Shown: in pieces, positions 5,028 through 32,232 of the stretch
Layout: every line of letters begins with the position of its first letter
Numbering within the stretch: the stretch's first letter is position 1
Origin: Flavobacteriaceae bacterium
Lineage (GTDB): Bacteria > Bacteroidota > Bacteroidia > Flavobacteriales > Flavobacteriaceae
Reading direction: 5' to 3'
Assembly: GCA_045047075.1 (NCBI GenBank)
Contig: JASFYP010000022.1
Location: forward strand, 23,654 to 87,653
DNA: 64,000 nt
Program-made: the position numbers and the translations under genes
Notes under the pieces: model-generated
Database searches by the model: none
Told to the model about the DNA's origin: nothing
Seen by the model: the letters and a program-made list of their open reading frames with translations, nothing else

Positions 5028-5444
5028 TTGAAACAAAACTACGCACTCAATCAACTTCCAGAAATTGCAAAAGAGATTCTTGCTACAGCACAGCATAAAA
5101 TCTTGCTCTTTAATGGCAAAATGGGTGTTGGTAAAACTACTTTAATAAAAGAGTTGGTTAACCAATTAGGTTTTAAAGACATTGCCAACTCCCCTACTTT
5201 TTCTTTGGTAAATGAATACCAAACTCCAAAGGGTGAAAAAATATATCACTTCGATTTTTACAGAATTGAATCAGAAGAAGAAGCTTATGATATAGGAATT
5301 GAAGATTATTTTTATGGTGACCATTGGTGCTTTATTGAATGGGGCGAAAAAGTAAAAAATTTACTACCTTTAGAAATTGTAAACATCAATATTGTTGTAA
5401 ATCCAAACAACCAACGAACCATAGAAATTGACCAAGATGAGTAA
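5028..5444 (+). CDS. tsaE: tRNA threonylcarbamoyladenosine biosynthesis ATPase TsaE
   Basis: Walker A GKMGVGKTT, SPTFSLVNEY, HFDFYR, IEWGE. Confidence 0.95.
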   Translation: MKQNYALNQLPEIAKEILATAQHKILLFNGKMGVGKTTLIKELVNQLGFKDIANSPTFSLVNEYQTPKGEKIYHFDFYRIESEEEAYDIGIEDYFYGDHWCFIEWGEKVKNLLPLEIVNINIVVNPNNQRTIEIDQDE

Positions 5445-6639
5445 AAAAGCATCTTCACCATTTAGCAAAGAACAATTAATGCCTCAGGCAGAAATGCTTG
5501 AAGTAGCTCGAGAAAAAGGAGAGCTTTTTATTGGAATTCCAAAAGAATATTACGCACAAGAAAAACGAGTTTCCTTAACGCCAGATGCTGTTTCAGCATT
5601 AACTGCTCACGGTCATCGTGTTGTTATTGAAACCGGTGCAGGTGAAGAATCTAACTTTTCAGATTCCGAATATTCTGAAGCTGGAGCTAAAATTGCCTAC
5701 GATATAAAAGAAGCTTTTGCATGTAAAATTGTTTTAAAAGTTGAGCCTCCTTCGTTTGAAGAAATTGAAATGATGCATCCACAATGTGTCTTATTTTCTG
5801 CACTTCAATTAAAAACACAATCAAAAAAATATTTTGAATTATTAGCTAAGAAAAGAATCACAGCAGTTGCTTTTGATTTTATTAGAGATAGTACAGGAGC
5901 TTATCCTGTAGTGAAATCTTTGAGTGAAATTGCAGGAGTTGCATCAATACTTATCGCAAGTGAATTGATGAGCTCTGACAAAACTGGTAACGGTTTATTG
6001 ATGGGGAATATCAGCGGAGTTCCTCCTACCGACGTTGTAATTATTGGTGCAGGAACTGTCGGTGAATTCGCAGCTCGTTCTGCAATTGGACTTGGTGCAA
6101 GAGTAAAAGTCTTTGACAATTCCCTTTCTAAATTAAGACATATTCAGCGGAGTTTGGGTAGTTTGATTTACACATCTACCATCCAACCAAAAACTTTACA
6201 AAAAGCATTAATGCGCTGTGATGTGGCTATTGGTGCTATTCGTGGTAAAACCAGATCTCCAATTATTGTTACCGAACAGATGGTTGAAAACATGAAAGAT
6301 GGGGCTGTAATTGTTGATGTAAGTATTGACCGTGGGGGCTGTTTTGAAACCTCGGAAGTCACGTCGCATAAAAGTCCAACTTTCGAAAAATACGGAATTA
6401 TTCATTATTGCGTCCCTAATATTCCGTCTAAATATGCGCGGACCGCCTCGGTATCTATCAGTAATATTTTTACTCCATATCTCTTAAACATTGGTGAAGA
6501 AGGTGGTTTTGAAAATGCTGTAAGGTTTGATAGAAGTCTACAAAAAGGCATGTATTTTTACCACGGAATTCTAACCAATAAATCTGTTGCTGATTGGTTC
6601 GGACTTCCTTTTAGAGATATTAATTTACTGATTTTATAA
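5437..6639 (+). CDS. ald: Alanine dehydrogenase-family protein (non-canonical active site)
   Basis: IGIPKE, EKRVSLTP, GAGTVG NAD-binding loop, DVSIDRGGCFETS, HYCVPNIP; ATG 5437 overlaps tsaE end. Confidence 0.7.
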   Translation: MSKKASSPFSKEQLMPQAEMLEVAREKGELFIGIPKEYYAQEKRVSLTPDAVSALTAHGHRVVIETGAGEESNFSDSEYSEAGAKIAYDIKEAFACKIVLKVEPPSFEEIEMMHPQCVLFSALQLKTQSKKYFELLAKKRITAVAFDFIRDSTGAYPVVKSLSEIAGVASILIASELMSSDKTGNGLLMGNISGVPPTDVVIIGAGTVGEFAARSAIGLGARVKVFDNSLSKLRHIQRSLGSLIYTSTIQPKTLQKALMRCDVAIGAIRGKTRSPIIVTEQMVENMKDGAVIVDVSIDRGGCFETSEVTSHKSPTFEKYGIIHYCVPNIPSKYARTASVSISNIFTPYLLNIGEEGGFENAVRFDRSLQKGMYFYHGILTNKSVADWFGLPFRDINLLIL

Positions 6640-6719
6640 ACCTCAATTGCACTACTTGTACCCTATACTATATTGCAAAACGAGTACTCTTATTTATTTG
6701 TTAGCACTTATTAAAAAAA

Positions 6720-7298
6720 ATGGAACGATTGACTAAATTTATAGAAAAGAATATTTCAGGGAAAAAGGTCTTAGGGCTTTTTATCTTGACCAATGTTGTT
6801 TATCTCTTTATGCTGACTGTTACAATTCCTAAAACAATGGAATTCTCTAATGGAATGAAATTATTGGATATGATGCCCACTGGATATGATTTGAATTATG
6901 TAAGTGAATTATTCAATTATCTTGGAGAAAATGGACGTGAGACTTATCTAACCAGCCAAATACCTGTGGATATGATTTACCCGTTACTTTTCGGACTTTC
7001 TTACTGTTTGCTTTTTGGGTATTTCTTAAAAAAACTAAACAAACTCACTAGCCCATATTTATATTTATGCCTACTTCCTGTAATTGCAGGAATTTCAGAT
7101 TATTTGGAAAATATAGGAATAATTGTAATGTTGAACAATTATCCAGACCTGACAGAGACTACGGTTAATGTAACTAATATTTTTACAGTTCTAAAAAGTA
7201 TTTCAACAAGTATATTTTTTATTACTTTGATAGTAATCTTAATAATACTTGGGATTAAATTCGTGAAAAAAAATAAAACAAGTGCTAACACCTTCTAA
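6720..7298 (+). CDS. Hypothetical membrane protein carried in a cassette-like unit
   Basis: 192 aa, about four hydrophobic segments; LLDMMPTGY, GRETY, DMIYP, DYLEN motifs; no family recognised. Confidence 0.8.
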   Translation: MERLTKFIEKNISGKKVLGLFILTNVVYLFMLTVTIPKTMEFSNGMKLLDMMPTGYDLNYVSELFNYLGENGRETYLTSQIPVDMIYPLLFGLSYCLLFGYFLKKLNKLTSPYLYLCLLPVIAGISDYLENIGIIVMLNNYPDLTETTVNVTNIFTVLKSISTSIFFITLIVILIILGIKFVKKNKTSANTF

Positions 7299-7333
7299 AA
7301 TTAATTGCTTGGTACAAGCCTACTTACGAAAAT

Positions 7334-7538
7334 CCTGGGCAAACTCATGCTTTTTTATAAAAAACATGATAAGACACGAATTTCACTAATTGCACAAATA
7401 AATGAATTTAATTCATTTAAAACCCACGTGATTTTAACCAAAAAAAATACATAAAGATAAAAATCTAAAGATTTTTAAAAAAATTAGTGGACATTCGTGA
7501 AATTAGTGTCTAAAAACACAAGTATGAGTTTGCCCTGG
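7334..7538. mobile_element. 205-bp MITE-like element with 19-bp terminal inverted repeats and 7-bp target duplication
   Basis: Left cctgggcaaactcatgctt (7334-7352) vs reverse complement of right end ccagggcaaactcatactt (7520-7538), 17/19 identical; cgaaaat directly flanks both sides (7327-7333, 7539-7545); no ORF. Confidence 0.7.
7372..7511. repeat. REP-like inverted repeat pair nested inside the MITE
   Basis: agacacgaatttcactaat (from 7372) vs attcgtgaaattagtgtct (to 7511). Confidence 0.65.
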
Positions 7539-7713
7539 CGAAAATCCTCACGAATTTTCTATTCGGTTTGTATTTGCTAAATTTGTTACTTAAACAACGC
7601 AACTAATCTTATACAAGACCGATACCTTTAGAATTTAAATACTATCCATACAACTTATCAATTCATAAAAAAGAGTATATTTGATTCACTAAATATAATA
7701 ATTAGTATACCCT

Positions 7714-8367
7714 ATGTCAATTGCTGATAACCTGCAACTAATCAAAAAAAATATTCCAAAAAAAGTTACGCTTGTAGCTGTTTCTAAAACAAAACCCATT
7801 ACATCTATTATCGAAGCCTATGATACAGGGCAACGGGTGTTTGGAGAGAATAAAATTCAGGAAATGGTTGATAAGCAATTACAACTTCCAGATGATATCA
7901 AATGGCATATGATTGGCCACTTACAACGGAATAAAGTAAAGTATATGGCCTCTTTTGTAAGTTTGATTCATGGTGTTGACAGCATCAAAACTTTAAAGGA
8001 AATAAACAAACAAGCCAAGAAATACAATAGAGTTATTGATTGTTTGCTACAGGCTAAAATTGCTGTAGAAGACACCAAGTTTGGTTTGTGTGGAATCGAA
8101 ATTGCAACCATATTAAATTCACCAGAAGTAAAAGAATTCGAAAATATTAAGATTGTTGGATTGATGGGAATGGCAACTTTTACAGATGATAAAAAACAAG
8201 TTCAAAAAGAATTCAGAACATTAAAAGAATTGTTTGATAAATTCAAAGAAAACCATCAACAACTCAAAATAATATCTATGGGGATGAGTGGTGATTTTAA
8301 ACTCGCCATTGAAGAAGGTAGTACTATGATTAGAGTAGGAAGCTCGATATTTGGAAGTAGAAATTAA
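7714..8367 (+). CDS. yggS: PLP homeostasis protein YggS/PROSC
   Basis: LVAVSKTK, FGENKIQE, WHMIGHLQRNK, GLMGM, SMGMSGDF, GSTMIRVGS.IFG. Confidence 0.95.
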   Translation: MSIADNLQLIKKNIPKKVTLVAVSKTKPITSIIEAYDTGQRVFGENKIQEMVDKQLQLPDDIKWHMIGHLQRNKVKYMASFVSLIHGVDSIKTLKEINKQAKKYNRVIDCLLQAKIAVEDTKFGLCGIEIATILNSPEVKEFENIKIVGLMGMATFTDDKKQVQKEFRTLKELFDKFKENHQQLKIISMGMSGDFKLAIEEGSTMIRVGSSIFGSRN

Positions 8368-8401
8368 TTTATAAACAAGCCCTAAAATAGATTCAAAATA
8401 A

Positions 8402-9481
8402 GTGTACGTAATTTTAGATATAGAAACCACTGGAGGAAAATATAATGAGGAGGGAATCACTGAAATTGCTGCCTATAAATTTGATGGTCACGAAATTGTT
8501 GACCAACTAATTACACTTGTAAATCCTGAAAAAGAAATTCAACCTTTTGTTGTTCGTCTCACAGGTATTAATAATGGGATGCTTAAAAATGCACCCAAAT
8601 TTCATGAAATTGCAAAACGGATTGTTGAGTTTACTGAAGATGCTATTATGGTTGCACACAATGCAAATTTTGATTATCGCATTTTAAAAACAGAATTTAG
8701 ACGTTTAGGTTTTGACTTTAAGAGAGAAACGCTATGCACCGTTGAGCTTACCAAAAAATTAATTCCTGATTTAGAATCTTATAGTTTAGGTAAATTGTGC
8801 AAAATCCTTTGTATCCCTGTTTCTAACAGGCATAGAGCAGAAGGTGATGCCTTAGCTACTGTTAAATTATTTAAATTGTTGATTGATAAAGATGTTGATA
8901 AAGAAATCATTAAAAGTAATATTAAACAGGGTGTAGAAAAAGAACTTCCTTCAAAATTGCAAAGCATCTTAGATGATGTCCCATCAAAAACAGGCGTTTT
9001 TTATGCACATAAAGAAAATGGAGATATCCTATATATTGGAGAAGGAAAAAATATGAAGAGAAGTGTAAATAAACTCTTTTTAAAAACTTCAAAAAAAGGA
9101 AAACTGTTACAAGAATCTTTAAGCTCTGTTTCTTATGAAGAAACTGGAAACGATTTAATAGGAAAGCTAAAATATTACAACGAGTTGATGATTAATAAAC
9201 CAAATTTTAATTTTTACTTCCCTAAAAAAGTGGGTGCAACAGCCTTAAGTAATCCTAACTTACTCATTATAGATAAGGGGCGACATACCGGAGAAAAATC
9301 AGTAGTACTTGTTGAAAATGATAAACTACTGGGTTACTGCTTTGTTGACTTGGCTTACCAAATAGAGCATATCGAAGTATTAAAATCGTTGTTAACTCCT
9401 ATAAAAAATAGTCAAATGAATCGACATGTTTTTAAAACCTATCTGCAAAAAAATAAAGTAGAAAAAATTGTTAGATTTTAA
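8402..9481 (+). CDS. DEDDh 3'-5' exonuclease (DNA Pol III epsilon-like) with degenerate GIY-YIG domain
   Basis: LDIETTG, VAHNANFD, HRAEGDA; then GVFY...LYIG. Confidence 0.85.
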   Translation: MYVILDIETTGGKYNEEGITEIAAYKFDGHEIVDQLITLVNPEKEIQPFVVRLTGINNGMLKNAPKFHEIAKRIVEFTEDAIMVAHNANFDYRILKTEFRRLGFDFKRETLCTVELTKKLIPDLESYSLGKLCKILCIPVSNRHRAEGDALATVKLFKLLIDKDVDKEIIKSNIKQGVEKELPSKLQSILDDVPSKTGVFYAHKENGDILYIGEGKNMKRSVNKLFLKTSKKGKLLQESLSSVSYEETGNDLIGKLKYYNELMINKPNFNFYFPKKVGATALSNPNLLIIDKGRHTGEKSVVLVENDKLLGYCFVDLAYQIEHIEVLKSLLTPIKNSQMNRHVFKTYLQKNKVEKIVRF

Positions 9482-9510
9482 TAAAACTATCAATTAGCCA
9501 ACAAAGATTT

Positions 9511-11478
9511 ATGAAAAAAATTGCAATCATCCTTCTATTCTTTTTGTGTTTTCAAGCATTTAGTCAAAAGAAAAATGACGATTATGAATTTGGAAATGTA
9601 AGCCCACTAGAATTAAATATGACTGTTTATGAAAAAGATACTACTGCCAATGCTGTTGTTTTATATGAGCATAGTTTTTCAAAATTTATTAAGAAAAATA
9701 ATCGAATACATTTGCAAACTACAGTTTACAGGAAAATAAAATTTCTAAACAACCGTGGTTTCAAAAATGCTACAGTTGAATTAAACTTGTTTAAAATTAA
9801 ACATGTAAAAGAAAAAGTCTATAAAATAAAGGGGGTTACCCACAATGGCAAAAATAAAACCTATTTAAAAGAACAAAATATTTTTAATACTGAGCCTCGA
9901 ACAAACTTATTAAAAACTACGTTCACATTACCAAATGTAAAAGATGGCAGCGTAATAGAATATACTTATACAATTGAATCGCCCTATATTTATAAACTAA
10001 AGAGTTGGCATTTCCAATCGTCAATTCCAAAAGTGAAAAGCATTTTTGTTGCTAAGATTCCGCAAAAATTTTTCTACAATAGAAAATTAATTGGTGATTT
10101 ACAATTGGTAGAAAATTCTGCAGATATTCAAAAAAAATGCTTTTATGTTTCTGGTGAAGACTCAAAAGCATATGCGTGTGAAGTTCTAAGATACAGCATG
10201 GAGAATATCCCTGCATTTATTACAGAATATTATTTAACTTCAAAAAAAAACTATATTGCTCGTATTGAATTTGAATTATCGCAATACAGAAAGGACTTAG
10301 GTGCAACAAGAATATATTCATCAACATGGAAATATGTTGAAGATAACATAAATAAATATTTTGGGAGTCAACTAAATAAAACTAATTATTTTAAAAATGA
10401 AATACCTCTATATATCTTATCAGAAAAAAACAAATTAGAAAGAGCTAAAAAAGTTTACTTCTTTATTCAAAATCATTTTAATTGGAATAATCAAAATTGG
10501 AATCAATCTGAAATATATGTCAAGGATGCATTTAAAAAGGGTGTAGGGTCTGTAGATGAAATTAACATATCTCTTATTAATTCCCTTAATGCTGCCGGAA
10601 TTGATTCAAAATTAACTCTCTTATCTACTAGGAAAAATGGTATTCCAGTAAAAACATATCCCGTAATTTCTGATTTTAATTATATTATTGCAAAAATTGA
10701 AGTTGATGGTAAATCTATATTTTTAGATGCTACAGATAAATCATTGCCTTTTGGAGTCCTTCCTTTTAGATGTTTGAACGGAGATGCTAGAGTTATGGAT
10801 TTTAAAAACGGCAGCTATTGGGAAGAAGTAAAACCAATAGATGATACAAAGCTAAAAATTAATATGCTACTTCAATTAAACAAGAATGACGAAGCTATTA
10901 AAGGTAAATTAAGAATTACTCGTTATGGGTATGAAGCTTTAGATTCACGAAAAAAATACAATTTACTTAAGGAAAAAAAATATTTATCAAATATTGAAGA
11001 GCGAAATGAAAATATTTTAATTGAGAGCTATTTAAACAAAAACCTCGATGAAAAAGAAAAACCATTTATTGAGAAATTTGAAATTACAATTGAAAATGAC
11101 AATACTATTGGAGATAAAATAATTTTAACCCCTTTCTTTATCAACCCTCTAAAAGAGAATCCTTTTAAATTAGAATCACGTTTATATCCTGTAGATTTTG
11201 GGTATCCAATAAAAAATAATTTTGTTATCACTATTGTCATACCAGAAAATTACATAGTAGAGTCTATGCCTACAAATAAAAATATTGCATTGCCAAATAA
11301 TAAAGGGATGCTTAACTATTCATCAAATCATGAGAATAATAAAATAAGTATCAATTTTAAATACGCAATTAATGCCACGGTGTTTAAGAGTGATGAATAC
11401 CTAAATTTAAAAGAGTTTTTCAATCAGATAATACTTTCACAATCCGAACCTATTATTTTAATTAAACAGACCCGTTAA
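9511..11478 (+). CDS. Secreted DUF3857 / transglutaminase-like domain protein (paralogue 1)
   Basis: Signal peptide, DTTANAVVLYE, LPNVKDGSVIEY.Y, W.FQ..IP, LSTR.NG, LDAT, YPVDFGYP. Confidence 0.85.
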   Translation: MKKIAIILLFFLCFQAFSQKKNDDYEFGNVSPLELNMTVYEKDTTANAVVLYEHSFSKFIKKNNRIHLQTTVYRKIKFLNNRGFKNATVELNLFKIKHVKEKVYKIKGVTHNGKNKTYLKEQNIFNTEPRTNLLKTTFTLPNVKDGSVIEYTYTIESPYIYKLKSWHFQSSIPKVKSIFVAKIPQKFFYNRKLIGDLQLVENSADIQKKCFYVSGEDSKAYACEVLRYSMENIPAFITEYYLTSKKNYIARIEFELSQYRKDLGATRIYSSTWKYVEDNINKYFGSQLNKTNYFKNEIPLYILSEKNKLERAKKVYFFIQNHFNWNNQNWNQSEIYVKDAFKKGVGSVDEINISLINSLNAAGIDSKLTLLSTRKNGIPVKTYPVISDFNYIIAKIEVDGKSIFLDATDKSLPFGVLPFRCLNGDARVMDFKNGSYWEEVKPIDDTKLKINMLLQLNKNDEAIKGKLRITRYGYEALDSRKKYNLLKEKKYLSNIEERNENILIESYLNKNLDEKEKPFIEKFEITIENDNTIGDKIILTPFFINPLKENPFKLESRLYPVDFGYPIKNNFVITIVIPENYIVESMPTNKNIALPNNKGMLNYSSNHENNKISINFKYAINATVFKSDEYLNLKEFFNQIILSQSEPIILIKQTR

Positions 11479-20555: not shown

Positions 20556-20758
20556 GATGCAATTAAGATTTAATTGCGTGCAAATTTAGGGATTATTATT
20601 GAAAGTGTTGTTACTAATATTACATTTGATTTTCGATTATTTCTCTTTGGATAAATCCTAATTTTAACTGATCTACTAAATTTTACACTTTTTTGACATA
20701 ATTTCACAATTGAAAACCTTCAATTAAAATCTTTCATCTTAAGTTTGAAAAAAATATC

Positions 20759-22267
20759 ATGTTCAAAAAATATTATTTATTACGTATCGGTCTATTAGTA
20801 TTAGGAGTTTTTCTTGTAAGCTCATGTAAAGGAGAATCAAATTCTAAAAATAAGAGGATTGATTCTATTAGTAAAACAAAAGCAGAAGAAATTGAAGGAA
20901 TCGTAGGTCTATATTCAGAATACGGAGGTTTTAATGGTGCTGTTTTAGTTTCACATGAAGGCAAAATCATTTTTAAAAAAGGATTTGGATACGCAAATTT
21001 AGAATGGGGTATCCCCAACCAAACAGATACAAAATTCAGAATAGCATCCATCACAAAGCCATTTACAGCAATGCTTATTATGCAATTGGTGGCAGATGGA
21101 AAGCTAGATTTACATCAACCAATTTCAAACTATTTACCAGATTATCCTAAAAGCTATGGTGATAAGATTACGATTCATCATCTGCTCACTCATACTTCAG
21201 GAACTACAAGAGATTATGATTCAGATCTCCCTAAAAATAAATATCCAGACAGATATCGTACAGAAGAAGTCGTTCAGCAATATTCAAACCTTCCATTAGA
21301 ATTTGAACCAGGAGAAAAATTTTCATATAGCAATACCGGTTATCACACTTTAGCTTTAATTATTGAAACGATTACAGGTCAATCATACGAAACTGTTTTG
21401 CAAGAGCAAATTTTAGATCCTATTGGAATGAAAAATACGGGAGTTGATAAACATAGACCCATTATTAAAAATCGTGCTTATGGCTACTTTAAAGGGTTTG
21501 GAGATTATTTTAATGCTGATTTTGGAGACATGTCTGCAATAACAGGAGTTGGTAATATATACTCAACTGTAGAGGATATGTTTCTTTTAGATCAAGCTTT
21601 ATATACCGAAAAATTACTTCCGAAAAAGCATCTAGATTTAGTTTTTTCTGAACAAATTTCTGACCCAGCTTACGGAGGATTTTATGGATATGGTTGGGAA
21701 ATTAGGGGGAAACCAATCGGGAATACTTCAAAAACAGTAGAGACCATTGGGCATAGCGGATCCATGAAAGGGTTTACTGCTTTGTTTACAAGGATTCCGT
21801 CTAGTAATTCTTCCATCGTATTTTTTAATAATACAGGGCGTGCTTTTTTAAATACAATGACAACAGCTATTATCGGAATTTTAAATGATGAATCGTATGA
21901 TTTTCCATTAAAACCATTGGCTATGTTTATGAAGAAAACGATTGAAAAGGAAGGAATTGAAAAAGGGGTTTTATTTTATAAAGAGCATAAAGATTTGGAT
22001 GATTATTATGTTTCTGAACAAGAATTAATTGTAGCAGGATATAAATATTTACAAGCAGGAAATGCTGAATATGCTGCTGAAATATTTAAACTAAGTACCG
22101 AAGTTTTTCCTGATAGAGACAATCCGTATGACAGTTATGCTGAAGCATTAATGACTTTAGGAAAAACAGAAGAAGCTATTAAGAATTATAAAAAATCTTT
22201 GGAATTAAATCCCAACAATAACAATGCAAAAGAAATGTTGAAGAAATTAGAAAAGGAAAACAACTAA
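20759..22267 (+). CDS. Serine hydrolase (beta-lactamase/AmpC-like) lipoprotein with C-terminal TPR
   Basis: Lipobox VSSC, SxxK (ASITK), LLTHTSG, YSN, HSG; TPR N.YDSYAEAL...G. Confidence 0.88.
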   Translation: MFKKYYLLRIGLLVLGVFLVSSCKGESNSKNKRIDSISKTKAEEIEGIVGLYSEYGGFNGAVLVSHEGKIIFKKGFGYANLEWGIPNQTDTKFRIASITKPFTAMLIMQLVADGKLDLHQPISNYLPDYPKSYGDKITIHHLLTHTSGTTRDYDSDLPKNKYPDRYRTEEVVQQYSNLPLEFEPGEKFSYSNTGYHTLALIIETITGQSYETVLQEQILDPIGMKNTGVDKHRPIIKNRAYGYFKGFGDYFNADFGDMSAITGVGNIYSTVEDMFLLDQALYTEKLLPKKHLDLVFSEQISDPAYGGFYGYGWEIRGKPIGNTSKTVETIGHSGSMKGFTALFTRIPSSNSSIVFFNNTGRAFLNTMTTAIIGILNDESYDFPLKPLAMFMKKTIEKEGIEKGVLFYKEHKDLDDYYVSEQELIVAGYKYLQAGNAEYAAEIFKLSTEVFPDRDNPYDSYAEALMTLGKTEEAIKNYKKSLELNPNNNNAKEMLKKLEKENN

Positions 22268-29738: not shown

Positions 29739-30632
29739 ATGGTAGTACATTTTTTAAAGTTGATACGTTGGCAGAATTTAAGCATGCTTATAATTGTTCA
29801 ACTACTCTTTAAATATGTACTCTTCAAAAACTACCAAATTGTTATAAACCTATCAAATTTTGATTTTACATTATTAGTATTGGCCATTATATTTATTGCC
29901 GCTGGAGGGAATGTAATCAATGATTTCTTTGATATTGAAACTGACAATATTAACAAACCAACCAAAGTTATAGTTGGTACAGTTTTTAGTCAGTATAAAG
30001 CAAAATTACTTTATATAATTTTAACGATATCAGGAATTATATTTGGAGCTTATCTGAGTTGCAGTAAACAACTCCCCTATTTATCAATTATTTTTATAGC
30101 AATTACTGGCTTGCTTTTTTTGTATTCAAACTACCTCAAAAGAATTGCTCTGATAGGGAATATCCTTGTTTCCTTACTCATAGGATTTAGTATTCTTTTA
30201 TTAGGAGTGTTTGATGTATTCCCAAATAGTGGCAATCCAGACAATGCCCTTGTTTTAAAAGTGATGTTTGTTTATGTTACTTTTGCCTTTGGACTTAATT
30301 TTATCAGAGAAATAATTAAGGATATTGAAGATATGGATGGAGATTATACTGTGGGTTTGAAAACATTACCCATTATTTTTGGCAAAAAAAGAGCGCAAAA
30401 TTGTACTTTGTTTTTAAGTAGCTGTTTTGCTTTTACTTTAATTTTTACAATTACTTTCTATCGATATTTAAGTGATTTTCTTTTAGGCTATGGATTTCTT
30501 TTTGTTGTCTTTCCGCTACTCTATTTTTGTTATCAACTGTATTATGCAAACACAAAACAAGACTTTAAAAAGTTGAGTTCTTTATTAAAGCTAATTATGA
30601 TTTCTGGTATGCTATCAATCTTTATAATTTAA
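29739..30632 (+). CDS. UbiA-family prenyltransferase (DGGGP synthase-like)
   Basis: LIRWQNL, GNVINDFFDIETD.INKP, REIIKDIEDMDGD, TLPI..G. Confidence 0.85.
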   Translation: MVVHFLKLIRWQNLSMLIIVQLLFKYVLFKNYQIVINLSNFDFTLLVLAIIFIAAGGNVINDFFDIETDNINKPTKVIVGTVFSQYKAKLLYIILTISGIIFGAYLSCSKQLPYLSIIFIAITGLLFLYSNYLKRIALIGNILVSLLIGFSILLLGVFDVFPNSGNPDNALVLKVMFVYVTFAFGLNFIREIIKDIEDMDGDYTVGLKTLPIIFGKKRAQNCTLFLSSCFAFTLIFTITFYRYLSDFLLGYGFLFVVFPLLYFCYQLYYANTKQDFKKLSSLLKLIMISGMLSIFII

Positions 30633-30636
30633 ACGT

Positions 30637-31215
30637 ATGTTAAAAGAAAAATTAAAAAATTACAATATCATTCTTGCTTCAGGATCACCAAGAAGGCAAC
30701 AATTTTTAAAAGACTTAGATCTCGATTTTACAATTCAATTAAAAGAAGTTGAAGAAGTGTATCCACCCCATTTAAAAGAAACAGAAATTACAGATTATTT
30801 GGCTGAGCTTAAATCGAGTTCATTTACCAACTTAAATAAAAATGACATTCTCATTACCTCTGATACCATTGTTTGGCTAGATAACAAAGCCATTGGCAAA
30901 CCAAAAGATAAACAAGATGCAATTGCAATTTTTAAAGAAATGTCTGGAAAAAAGCATCAAGTATTTACTTCAATTTGCCTTAAAACAGCAACTGAAATCA
31001 GAATTGTCAATGATACCACAGATGTTTATTTTAAAGATTTATCCATCGATGAAATCAATTACTACCTAGATAATTTTCAGTCTTATGACAAAGCAGGAGG
31101 GTATGGAATTCAAGATTGGATTGGGCTTATCGGTGTCGAAAAAATTGATGGAAGTTATTTTAATGTCATGGGATTACCTGTTCATAAATTATATGCAGAA
31201 TTGTTAAAATTTTAG
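30637..31215 (+). CDS. maf: Maf nucleoside-triphosphate pyrophosphatase
   Basis: LASGSPRR, DTIV, KP, DKAGGYGIQ, NVMGLP. Confidence 0.95.
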   Translation: MLKEKLKNYNIILASGSPRRQQFLKDLDLDFTIQLKEVEEVYPPHLKETEITDYLAELKSSSFTNLNKNDILITSDTIVWLDNKAIGKPKDKQDAIAIFKEMSGKKHQVFTSICLKTATEIRIVNDTTDVYFKDLSIDEINYYLDNFQSYDKAGGYGIQDWIGLIGVEKIDGSYFNVMGLPVHKLYAELLKF

Positions 31216-31272
31216 GCTTCATATTATTTCAAAAAGATTATTTTTGCGAATGCACAACGTTATTTTATACAA

Positions 31273-32232
31273 ATGAAAAAATACACTTTTACCGAGAAAA
31301 AAGATACCCGTTCAGGATTTGGAGACGGACTTACAATTTTAGGTCGTACCAACCCAGATGTCGTTGCACTTTGCGCCGATTTAATTGGATCTTTAAAAAT
31401 GCAAACATTTATTGATGAAAACCCAAAACGTTTTTTTCAAGTAGGTATAGCCGAAGCTAATATGATGTGTATTGCAGCTGGCTTAACCATTGGTGGTAAG
31501 ATTCCGTTTACCGGAACTTTTGCAAATTTCTCAACTGGTAGAGTGTATGATCAAATTCGTCAATCTATTGCATACTCTGGTAAAAATGTAAAAATTTGTG
31601 CATCGCATGCTGGATTAACTTTGGGAGAAGATGGTGCAACACATCAAATATTAGAAGACATTGGTTTGATGAAAATGTTACCTGGTATGGTTGTAATCAA
31701 TCCTTGTGATTACAACCAAACAAAAGCTGCAACTATTGCTATTGCAAAATATGAAGGTCCAGTTTATTTAAGATTTGGCCGTCCGTCAGTGCCAATTTTT
31801 ATGCCTGATTATAAAGACGAAGAATTTGTAATTGGTAAAGCAATTCAATTAACCGAAGGTACAGATGTTACCATTGTAGCAACGGGTCATTTGGTTTGGG
31901 AAGCTTTGCAAGCATCTGAGCAATTAGAAGCAAAAGGTATTAGTGTCGAAGTGATTAATATCCATACAATAAAACCTTTAGATGAAGAAGCTATCTTAAA
32001 ATCAGTTGCTAAAACGGGTTGTATCGTTACAGCAGAAGAGCATAATATTTTTGGCGGATTAGGAGAAAGTGTTGCAAGAACTTTAGCAATGAACAATCCA
32101 ATTCCTCAAGAGTTTGTAGCCGTTAATGATAGTTTTGGAGAATCTGGAACTCCAGCTCAGCTAATGGAAAAATACGGTTTGGATGCATCAGCAGTTGTAA
32201 AAGCTGTAGAAAAAGTAATCGCTAGAAAATAA
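31273..32232 (+). CDS. Transketolase C-terminal subunit (pyrimidine-binding and C-terminal domains)
   Basis: LCADL.GS, GIAEANM, GEDGATHQ, Y.RFGRP, TIKPLD, EEH. Confidence 0.92.
   Translation: MKKYTFTEKKDTRSGFGDGLTILGRTNPDVVALCADLIGSLKMQTFIDENPKRFFQVGIAEANMMCIAAGLTIGGKIPFTGTFANFSTGRVYDQIRQSIAYSGKNVKICASHAGLTLGEDGATHQILEDIGLMKMLPGMVVINPCDYNQTKAATIAIAKYEGPVYLRFGRPSVPIFMPDYKDEEFVIGKAIQLTEGTDVTIVATGHLVWEALQASEQLEAKGISVEVINIHTIKPLDEEAILKSVAKTGCIVTAEEHNIFGGLGESVARTLAMNNPIPQEFVAVNDSFGESGTPAQLMEKYGLDASAVVKAVEKVIARK

Follow-up and report, generated by a model that had tools for sequence, protein, structure and literature searches.

Introduction

The closest known systems to the locus described here are classical integrons and the rAID-1 arrays (recombinase-associated, for acquired interbacterial defence) of gut Bacteroidales. 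The locus is a 921-bp insert, made of one gene and one foldable site, between the ald and yggS genes of a Flavobacteriaceae bacterium. It lies in a stretch of 64,000 nt (hereafter the window; contig JASFYP010000022.1, positions 23,654 to 87,653). Coordinates are window positions, the genome from which the window comes is G000, and C-numbers designate the contigs of that genome. In integrons, the IntI-specific domain of the integrase and the extrahelical bases that it binds are treated as defining, essential features. Class 1 integron cassettes were reportedly found integrated at secondary, non-att sites in the 1990s, in work ascribed to Recchia and Hall and to Francia et al. Such an insertion is conservative and occurs at a short G-W-T-like target; the attC site thereby loses the distal half of its R' box and the cassette is fixed.

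The Vibrio superintegron carries attC sites of the Vibrio cholerae repeat (VCR) type, of about 120-130 nt, and the sedentary chromosomal integrons have been reviewed (PMC8618304). Surveys built on the IntI domain and on attC features report that Bacteroidota are almost free of integrons; IntegronFinder 2.0 found one complete integron in Bacteroidetes proper, in Salinibacter ruber, and the definition of a CALIN (attC sites clustered without an integrase) requires at least two canonical attC sites (PMC9024848). The rAID-1 arrays were described by Ross et al. in 2019 (bioRxiv 10.1101/471110; PMC12247911). They are defined by their cargo of immunity genes and by an identity of at least 44% to the Bacteroides fragilis recombinase BF9343_RS08045, and their motifs were called 'reminiscent of integrons' by the authors (bioRxiv 10.1101/471110). 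The mechanism of their biogenesis is presented as 'an area of active research', and neither a site grammar nor a crossover point is given (bioRxiv 10.1101/471110; PMC12247911). In a literature search of incomplete coverage, which is weak evidence, we found no published account of flavobacterial integron-like arrays, nor one that treats Lutibacter and integrons in substance.

We propose, with a probability of about 0.85, that positions 6701-7621 are a single cassette of a non-canonical integron-like gene-capture system of Lutibacter and its relatives and, more widely, of Bacteroidota. The site of this cassette belongs to a repeat family with a covarying fold; its members form arrays next to a recombinase gene, and the cassettes follow a rule of complementarity between their two ends.

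Empty and filled states of the ald-yggS site

In the two closest species (G003 and G011; 95% identity to the window in ald and 88-90% in yggS), yggS follows ald after 156 bp and no gene lies between them. Their homology to the window halts at G6700, and alignment alone places its resumption on the right only at about 7626. A metagenome contig, X1, whose flanks are about 97% identical to those of the window, is an empty site that reads ...CTTACTTATTT-G-ATACCTTTAGAA (TTATTT-G-ATACC). Because X1 equals the two flanks of the window joined together, host DNA resumes at 7622. The empty sites align with the joined flanks without any gap, and the insertion took place with neither duplication nor loss of bases. 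The junctions are G|TTAGCAC and ...AAGACCG|ATACC; one G is ambiguous, G6700 and G7621 being interchangeable as the crossover base. Insertion at this point was conservative and is located to within one base, and such a natural before-and-after pair, one cassette apart, fixes the crossover around the shared G of G|TT. In a second metagenome run, X2, the contig set spans both junctions of the filled site and lacks the miniature inverted-repeat transposable element (MITE) that interrupts the site in the window. Since the cassette occurs at this locus without the MITE and other copies of the site are uninterrupted, the MITE is the younger of the two. The order of events is thus an empty site, insertion of the cassette (6701-7621), and insertion of the MITE.

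A first-pass annotation of the window had described a lone integron-like cassette between ald and yggS, at 6699-7626, and had suggested looking for an empty site. The intervals of G003, G011 and X1 provide it, broken exactly at G|TT, and support the lone cassette; the outer coordinates were correct to within five bases, the true insert being 6701-7621. The 'decayed core' cgatacc that had been placed at the end of the site was a misreading: the cassette ends with G7621 and the following ATACC... belongs to the host, so that the motif is the junction with a secondary, non-att target.

The interval would have another history if the gene were ancestral, transmitted vertically between ald and yggS and lost by deletion in relatives, and if the inverted pair around it were due to chance or were a transcription feature. 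This pair, TGTTAGCACTT at 6699-6709 and AAGTGCTAACA at 7280-7290, brackets the 192-aa open reading frame (ORF) exactly over 11 bp, as had been seen at first pass, and extends to 14 nt at 93% identity. When the 40 nt before a start were compared with 50 nt at the end of an ORF about 580 bp away, an exact inverted repeat of at least 11 nt was obtained in 0.065% of random placements in the own genome. By itself the pair is therefore unlikely but not decisive. Vertical descent can draw on this chance rate of 6.5e-4 per gene and on the fact that just three empty sites have been seen. On the other hand, it has to face the gap-free match of these empty sites with the joined flanks, the patchy presence of the gene within the genus (4 of 20 genomes), and the occurrence of the same gene with the same ends in unrelated contexts, among them recombinase-headed arrays of other orders, at up to 92% protein identity. 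We regard this history as highly improbable.

Arrays of related sites behind a tyrosine recombinase

Removal of the MITE restores an element of about 130 nt that belongs to a repeat family. A search with a sequence-only model (R1) found six copies in the own genome. Those on C15 (two), C84 and C40 are uninterrupted, and the one on C24 is interrupted, at a near-identical position, by a further insertion of the MITE seen in the window. Of 16 genomes of the genus, among which the own genome is counted, 15 have the element, and it is essentially absent from 10 genomes of other families of the order. The element had been expected to be multi-copy, and with up to 43 copies in relatives, in dense same-strand arrays, it is. 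On C15, positions 6493-7787 (L001 1988-3290, minus strand) form a two-site mini-array that carries an NADPH-dependent aldehyde reductase gene (Ahr, 536 bits). In X1, the summed contig depth over the arms of the element (window 7292-7335 and 7512-7643) is in the thousands, against about 12-25 for the flanking genes, indicating that the family is extremely abundant in that community.

The complete genome of Urechidicola croceus (G009) has 43 matches to the element, 30 of them on one strand over 76 kb, and almost all the ORFs between the copies are co-oriented. The cargo consists of small hypothetical and lipoprotein genes and of toxin-antitoxin pairs, with IS3 and IS110 insertions. Immediately upstream of this array, on the same strand, is the gene of a 394-aa tyrosine recombinase, and the same arrangement is found in G003, G013 and G010. 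An attI-like sequence, ...ACCAG|TTGGGTTTAATGC, is located 35 nt past the stop codon of the G009 recombinase and recurs after a site within the array; attI-like sequences are also found at the end of C10 and in Ancylomarina. The attI-like site adjoins the recombinase gene and the array reads away from it, co-oriented with the recombinase and not divergent.

The own genome encodes an intact recombinase orthologue of 390 aa (C10:167-1339) on a 4.6-kb contig whose end, at base 1, coincides with an attI-like ...CATATAACGAG|TT. From this sequence, the assembly appears to break at the start of an array. The absence of an integrase noted at first pass therefore holds for the surroundings of the cassette but not for the genome, where the matching recombinase, which is not of the IntI type, is on C10. 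Also on this contig, two ORFs lie next to each other and may be pieces of a split integrase gene; the C-terminal motif of the first is tyrosine-recombinase-like.

Complementarity between the ends of a cassette

Nearly all the array copies have the same order: a box xxxxxAAC (R'') followed by A(A/C); the strand GTATAA-A-ATTA-A-TTGC; about 70 nt containing a GAAAATCC/GGATTTTC hairpin; the opposite strand GCAA-C-TAAT-C-TTATAC; and AAACCG|TTxxxxxxx, which includes the R' core. Most of them terminate with ...A(A/C)(A/C)CG, then TT. In a second type of stem, GGCTAT-A-AGTA-A-TTGC ... GCAA-C-TACT-C-ATAGCC, the changes are compensatory to the first. A crossover grammar, xxxxxAAC ... G|TTxxxx, is thus present in nearly all aligned array copies. 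The core of the window, GTTAGCA, does depart from the GTTRRRY consensus, as had been cautioned, but this is unremarkable as the four positions after GTT vary freely in the family.

Read as its reverse complement, the stretch past G| (TTxxxxxxx) gives the R'' box (xxxxxxxAA) of the next site, that is, of the repeat that belongs to the same cassette; examples are TTGTGGTTA/TAACCACAA, TTGCCAGTA/TACTGGCAA and TTGGGCTT/AAGCCCAA. We scored nine variable positions in the 14 pairs of neighbouring array sites that are less than 1.4 kb apart. Five pairs, two of which come from duplicates of a single cassette, matched at 8 of the 9 positions, and a further three at 6 of 9, whereas only 1.4% of random pairs reached seven matches or more; R'' and R' of the same site matched at the random level (3.26 versus 3.24). 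The other close pairs may be explained by site types that escaped detection and by modules without an ORF that lie between the sites. In the window, complementarity of the 5' end of the cassette to its own R'' box is complete (11/11), and the Ahr cassette of C15 follows the same rule (TTGTGAGTA / ACTCACAA). A direct-repeat search in the Chlorobiaceae loci found little; a pattern search with ...ACCG|TT brought up, in a Chlorobiaceae metagenome-assembled genome (MAG), two sites that follow a homologous recombinase and have the same complementarity. The first-pass annotation had anticipated copies downstream of unrelated small ORFs whose 5' end is complementary to their own AAC box, and this is what the arrays contain. 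As judged from sequence, the rule is the signature of cassettes that were once circular and were opened at G|TT.

The family is a structured intergenic repeat with a hairpin, and copies are also found upstream of genes. It could therefore be viewed as an element related to repetitive extragenic palindromes or bacterial interspersed mosaic elements (REP/BIME), or as a terminator or small-RNA element, with no relation to mobility, the gene having come by transposition or homologous recombination. A scan against Rfam of the window (gathering threshold) and of four loci with other copies (E<=1) returned two tRNAs only, none at the element; no family matches, which leaves room for an RNA role. However, the insert ends without target duplication and without terminal inverted repeats, and its ends are the last G of the element and the complement of its R'' box. 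Moreover, the arrays always start at a tyrosine recombinase, and the complementarity is to the site of the same cassette and not to the adjacent one, which a terminator or REP model does not predict. We consider a repeat foreign to mobility to be unlikely.

Folding of the site

Covariation was analysed on 33 distinct copies, with a structure of 22 pairs made of an L-type stem and a central hairpin. In this set pairing reaches 85.4% of the cells, compared with 31-44% after sliding of the partners, and 60 cells are compensatory, against 21.6±3.8 in shuffles, none of which (0/500) reached this value. The L stem (helix 1) has 14 pairs, nine of them with compensatory double changes, and 87% of its cells are paired. 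RNAalifold recovers the outer stem independently from the 33-copy alignment; a first run with 7 copies had given almost no structure.

The first-pass annotation had proposed a hairpin element of about 135 bp once the MITE is removed. The element stands, as a member of a family of about 130 nt, but not all of its listed stems do. The pairings attaattgc/gcaactaat and gaaaat/attttc covary in the 33 copies. The stem ttctaaaa/ttatacaa corresponds to the conserved outer stem (GTATAA/TTATAC) and is partly decayed in the window copy; the outer L stem of this copy has two mismatches, which makes it a somewhat decayed member of the family. In contrast, tacaag/tttgta is paired in 48.5% of cases, no better than the slid controls.

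Two positions of the L stem oppose an A to a C, in 31/33 and 33/33 copies, and there are no bulged bases; the sites have a 3-nt/6-nt spacer. On the bottom strand the A/C oppositions become G.T wobbles, and accordingly this strand folds better in 27 of the 33 copies (mean -14.5 versus -12.6 kcal/mol, p=8.6e-6). When the site of the window is rebuilt as a circle junction, its bottom strand folds into an 11-bp R stem, the spacer, the L stem and a terminal hairpin (-18.3 kcal/mol, z -2.9), and the top-strand optimum is devoid of the L stem.

The platform recombinase

The recombinases of Lutibacter (C10), Urechidicola (G009) and Chlorobiaceae score 199-209 bits on the IntI model TIGR02249, whose cut-off is 265, and the match is in two stretches that skip model positions 181-244 or thereabouts. 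Neither the own genome nor any of 8 relatives with arrays has a match above this cut-off. The same enzymes score 217-223 bits on the XerA model NF040815 (cut-off 220; product name 'site-specific tyrosine recombinase/integron integrase'), and the closest solved structures are XerA (5HXY) and an XerC-like protein. The alignment with VchIntIA (2A3V) is also in two pieces and omits residues 213-246, the IntI-specific segment. Smyshlyaev et al. reported that the insertion 'is not fully conserved' in a subgroup of integron-like recombinases. The proteins are about 395 aa long and have an N-terminal extension of about 100 aa that is present twice in Chlorobiaceae; many families of the phylum have full-length homologues, one of them being that of Algoriphagus (Cytophagales). 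According to these comparisons, the platform recombinase is not of the IntI type and is devoid of the IntI-specific domain.

These results bear on whether the insert could be a classical integron cassette, served by an IntI with its additional domain and bearing a canonical attC site with extrahelical bases. Many traits of classical integrons are indeed present, namely R''/R' boxes of the RYYYAAC/GTTRRRY type, a crossover at G|TT, arrays with a common orientation, cassettes that encode toxin-antitoxin pairs, and insertions of the IS110 type at the sites. Nevertheless, the best TIGR02249 scores remain below the cut-off, the 2A3V alignment leaves out the IntI-specific residues, and the sites have two A/C oppositions in place of bulges, as well as a 3-nt/6-nt spacer. 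A classical cassette is thus very improbable here.

A tyrosine recombinase of another type, 419 aa long (a CTnDOT-like length), is encoded at C81:155-1414 on a 4.5-kb contig, and a 40-nt fragment of the 3' arm of the element lies about 400 bp from it (C81:1823-1862).

Comparison with integrons and rAID-1 arrays

As in sedentary integrons, the recombinase heads a long co-oriented array of mostly single-gene cassettes; the sites are long and similar to one another, and combine R'' (…AAC) and R' (G|TT…) boxes with a spacer that stays unpaired, an L-type stem and a terminal structure that varies; the distal half of R' stands at the start of each cassette and matches the R'' of that cassette; toxin-antitoxin cassettes are present; and the bottom strand folds better. 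Unlike in sedentary integrons, the Lutibacter-type recombinase has no IntI domain, an IntI score below the cut-off, XerA as its nearest relative and the N-terminal extension of about 100 aa; it is co-oriented with the cassettes; and the sites bear two near-invariant A/C oppositions instead of extrahelical bases, together with the 3/6-nt spacer. The insert also resembles the integron cassettes found at secondary sites, being a lone cassette outside an array, with another recombinase and another family of sites, and with TTTG|ATAC as the target. It is similar to a CALIN in that cassettes occur without a nearby integrase, as in the two-site mini-array of C15; it differs in having one non-canonical site at a non-att locus.

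The resemblance to rAID-1 is of another kind: both are found in Bacteroidota, with a 5' tyrosine recombinase (of the XerD family in rAID-1), co-directional arrays of short genes, intergenic motifs and horizontal spread. The platforms of the relatives have the rAID-1 layout, at least two co-directional genes with repeat motifs, whereas the window has a single cassette. Membership of rAID-1 in the strict sense, which calls for an array of immunity genes and for an identity of at least 44% between its recombinase and B. fragilis BF9343_RS08045, would be in keeping with the shared phylum and layout, including the XerD-like 5' recombinase, co-directional short genes and intergenic repeat motifs (bioRxiv 10.1101/471110). 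But the cargo of the window is a membrane protein with no match to an immunity family, nor is it an orphan immunity gene by Pfam, NCBIfam, PADLOC or fold, and the one more distant relative identified, Algoriphagus, belongs to Cytophagales and not to Bacteroidales. We hold strict membership to be most unlikely.

The system keeps the grammar of cassettes without the IntI domain or the extrahelical bases. Integron-type capture may therefore exceed the reach of current detection tools, and may be achievable with a simpler recombinase. The empty and filled pair shows that integration is conservative for a non-IntI system and is possible at non-att sites between housekeeping genes. Finally, the locus is an experimental handle on the way in which rAID-type arrays arise; recombinase, attI-like site and folded site are each short and defined.

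A model for capture and insertion

We suggest the following scenario, drawn in part from integrons. A tyrosine recombinase of about 395 aa, with a Xer/XerA-like core, heads a co-oriented array in which each cassette is made of a promoterless-looking gene and a foldable site of about 115-135 nt. This site comprises, in order, R'' (xxxxxAAC) and a short spacer that is unpaired, then a 14-bp stem of the L type, a terminal part that varies and includes a hairpin, the unpaired 3' spacer ...AGACC, and the R' core G|TT. By analogy with integrons, the recombinase would excise the cassette in circular form, so that its 3' G meets the 5' TTxxxxxxx and R' is completed. It would then join the folded strand, probably the bottom one, to the attI-like site of the platform (...CAG|TTGGG). 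More rarely the partner could be a secondary site, as in integrons, and at this locus it would have been TTATTTG|ATACC between ald and yggS. Because host ATACC has replaced the TT... half of R', the site is unable to pair with its R'' box, and the cassette is consequently probably locked in place. The MITE entered the central hairpin of the cassette site later.

Several points weigh against a capture system of this kind or against parts of the scenario. The left-junction base is G in the window and A in two other contexts (L009 and L137), so the rules for the target would have to be loose. Complementarity is seen in only 5 of the 14 close neighbour pairs. The R'' box lies inside the coding sequence (KTSAN), and its conservation is therefore partly a protein constraint. 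The pairing of recombinase and site is deduced from their co-location in six lineages, and the bottom strand is put forward as the recombining one from folding energies and the G.T pattern. As to activity in this strain, the own genome has only six copies and its platform is cut by a contig end.

At a larger scale, the system has been seen in Flavobacteriaceae, Marinilabiliales (Ancylomarina), Cytophagales (Algoriphagus) and Chlorobiaceae. One could imagine that Bacteroidota, in the broad sense of the Genome Taxonomy Database (GTDB), possess an integron lineage of their own, with an N-extended XerA-like recombinase that never had the IntI domain or has lost it. In such a lineage the G.T wobbles may mark the strand, cassettes would be exchanged across orders and could enter G|AT-type chromosomal sites, and the lineage may underlie rAID-1. 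We would give this wider proposal an even chance.

The cassette gene and its spread

The 192-aa product of the cassette gene has no significant match to a Pfam, NCBIfam or PADLOC family, and its AF2 model (pLDDT 77.5) has no fold match in the PDB at E<=0.001. Its family counts 1624 homologues in a large protein collection, in several orders. Among these 1624, identity is 78-97% for the best 120, which were found in Ancylomarina (92%), Formosa, Winogradskyella, Polaribacter, Oceanihabitans and a Chlorobi MAG. Such a high identity across orders points to recent horizontal spread. Close homologues (75-80% identity) are found in 4 of the 20 genomes of the genus, the own genome included, and in the others they never adjoin ald or yggS. 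The homologues of G014, G019 and G003 sit elsewhere yet keep the 5' box and the ORF-terminal R'' box; they are followed by the same downstream element in G014 and G019, and in G003 by an attC-like site that shares only its 3' end. In G003 the two boxes are a compensatory pair, TTGGCACTT with AAGTGCCAA.

The left boundary x|TTAGCACTT recurs in Ancylomarina, Oceanihabitans and the Chlorobi MAG, whose cargo proteins are 79-92% identical. A tyrosine recombinase of Ancylomarina is directly followed by a row of co-directional genes, the fourth of which is the cassette gene; in the Chlorobi MAG, this gene is preceded by ...CTTATACAAACACG| of another site of the family. Translated, the R'' box (AAA ACA AGT GCT AAC) is the C-terminal KTSAN conserved in nearly all homologues; the putative recombination box and the protein tail constrain each other. 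The gene has the same orientation as ald and yggS, and read-through probably accounts for its expression.

Other features of the locus and of the arrays

The features of the locus are listed in Table 1. The tsaE gene is located upstream of the ald-cassette-yggS region and a DEDDh exonuclease gene downstream of it. No public sequencing run contains the entire stretch, the best share being 0.20. A promoter role of the element was considered and rejected: TAAATTTG, a Bacteroidetes -7-like box, is present in the window copy, and the motif is not conserved in other copies.

Table 1. Coordinates of the ald-yggS locus and of the parts of the inserted cassette
Feature	Position	Strand	Remarks
ald (alanine dehydrogenase), left host gene	5428..6639	+	Pfam AlaDh_PNT_C E 1.6e-59, AlaDh_PNT_N E 3.7e-37
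Left junction G	6700	+	Final base in common with the empty site; homology of G003 (L015) ends there
Secondary target at the empty ald-yggS site: TTATTTGATACC			TTATTTG|ATACC
Complete cassette, TTAGCAC...AAGACCG	6701..7621	+	Absent from G003, G011 and X1; present without the MITE in X2
5' end of the cassette, TTAGCACTT, corresponding to the distal half of the R' core	6701..6709	+	Exact complement of 7281-7289, in its own R'' box
Cassette gene, 192-aa helical membrane protein	6720..7298	+	ORF; C-terminal KTSAN encoded by the R'' box
R'' box, AAGTGCTAACA, with core TGCTAAC at 7283-7289	7280..7290	+	Aligns with the xxxxxAAC-A(A/C) box ahead of nearly all array copies
L''-type arm, CTTCTAAAATTAATTGC (family consensus CGTATAAAATTAATTGC)	7292..7308	+	Pairs with 7599-7614
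Left copy of the MITE target duplication	7327..7334	+	Covers most of the 5' arm of the central hairpin (7328-7333)
MITE with CAGGGCAAACTCAT-type inverted ends	7335..7538	+	Seven copies in the genome; later than the cassette
Right copy of the duplication (7539-7546), then loop and 3' arm of the central hairpin, ATTTTC (7554-7559)	7539..7559	+	
L'-type arm, GCAACTAATCTTATAC	7599..7614	+	Bears the two conserved C's opposite A's
3' spacer AAGACC and terminal G (proximal half of R')	7615..7621	+	Host ATACC comes next here
Host intergenic DNA upstream of yggS	7622..7713	+	93-94% identical to G003 and G011
yggS (PLP-binding protein), right host gene	7714..8367	+	Pfam Ala_racemase_N E 8.3e-21; orthologues in 23/26 relatives

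Without the MITE and one copy of its duplication, the cassette measures 709 bp. The MITE is 204 bp long and is flanked by the target duplication CGAAAATC. Five other full-length copies and an internally deleted one are present in the own genome; these six have clean duplications of 9-10 bp and CAGGGCAAACTCAT-type ends. Two of the seven copies (window 7335-7538 and C24:44859-45061) lie inside attC-like elements, within the 5' arm of their central hairpin, with duplications CGAAAATC and GAAATTCCGA and positions one base apart. As attC-like elements represent only about 0.03% of the genome, this suggests that the MITE prefers the central hairpin as a target.

Elements of the IS1111-attC group target the attC sites of integrons, and the placement of IS110 genes in G009 (L074-L078) recalls them. 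Two attC-like sites (oriented 31668 and 84040) have an IS110-family gene directly upstream, and both show a common end sequence, ...ATACAAACTTAAGA, in place of the R'' box. The gene copies are at oriented positions 30491-31668, 78412-79401 and 82863-84040, and the copy at 78412-79401 has no detected site adjacent to it. A similar sequence, AAACTTAAGA, is found where R'' is expected in the own copy C15:7670-7787.

Many sites of the G009 array are followed by TTxxxTTTAATGCT... and by a non-coding module of about 480 bp that is repeated through the array (e.g. oriented 8390-8700, 9200-9770 and 20751-21270) and yields a spurious 77-aa ORF on the minus strand. These modules may be ORF-less cassettes or a second type of site. 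A further site type (TATAACCGCAATTACGGCGGATTCGAC...) is present in the G009 array and is also found after the homologue of the window's cargo gene in Oceanihabitans (L137).

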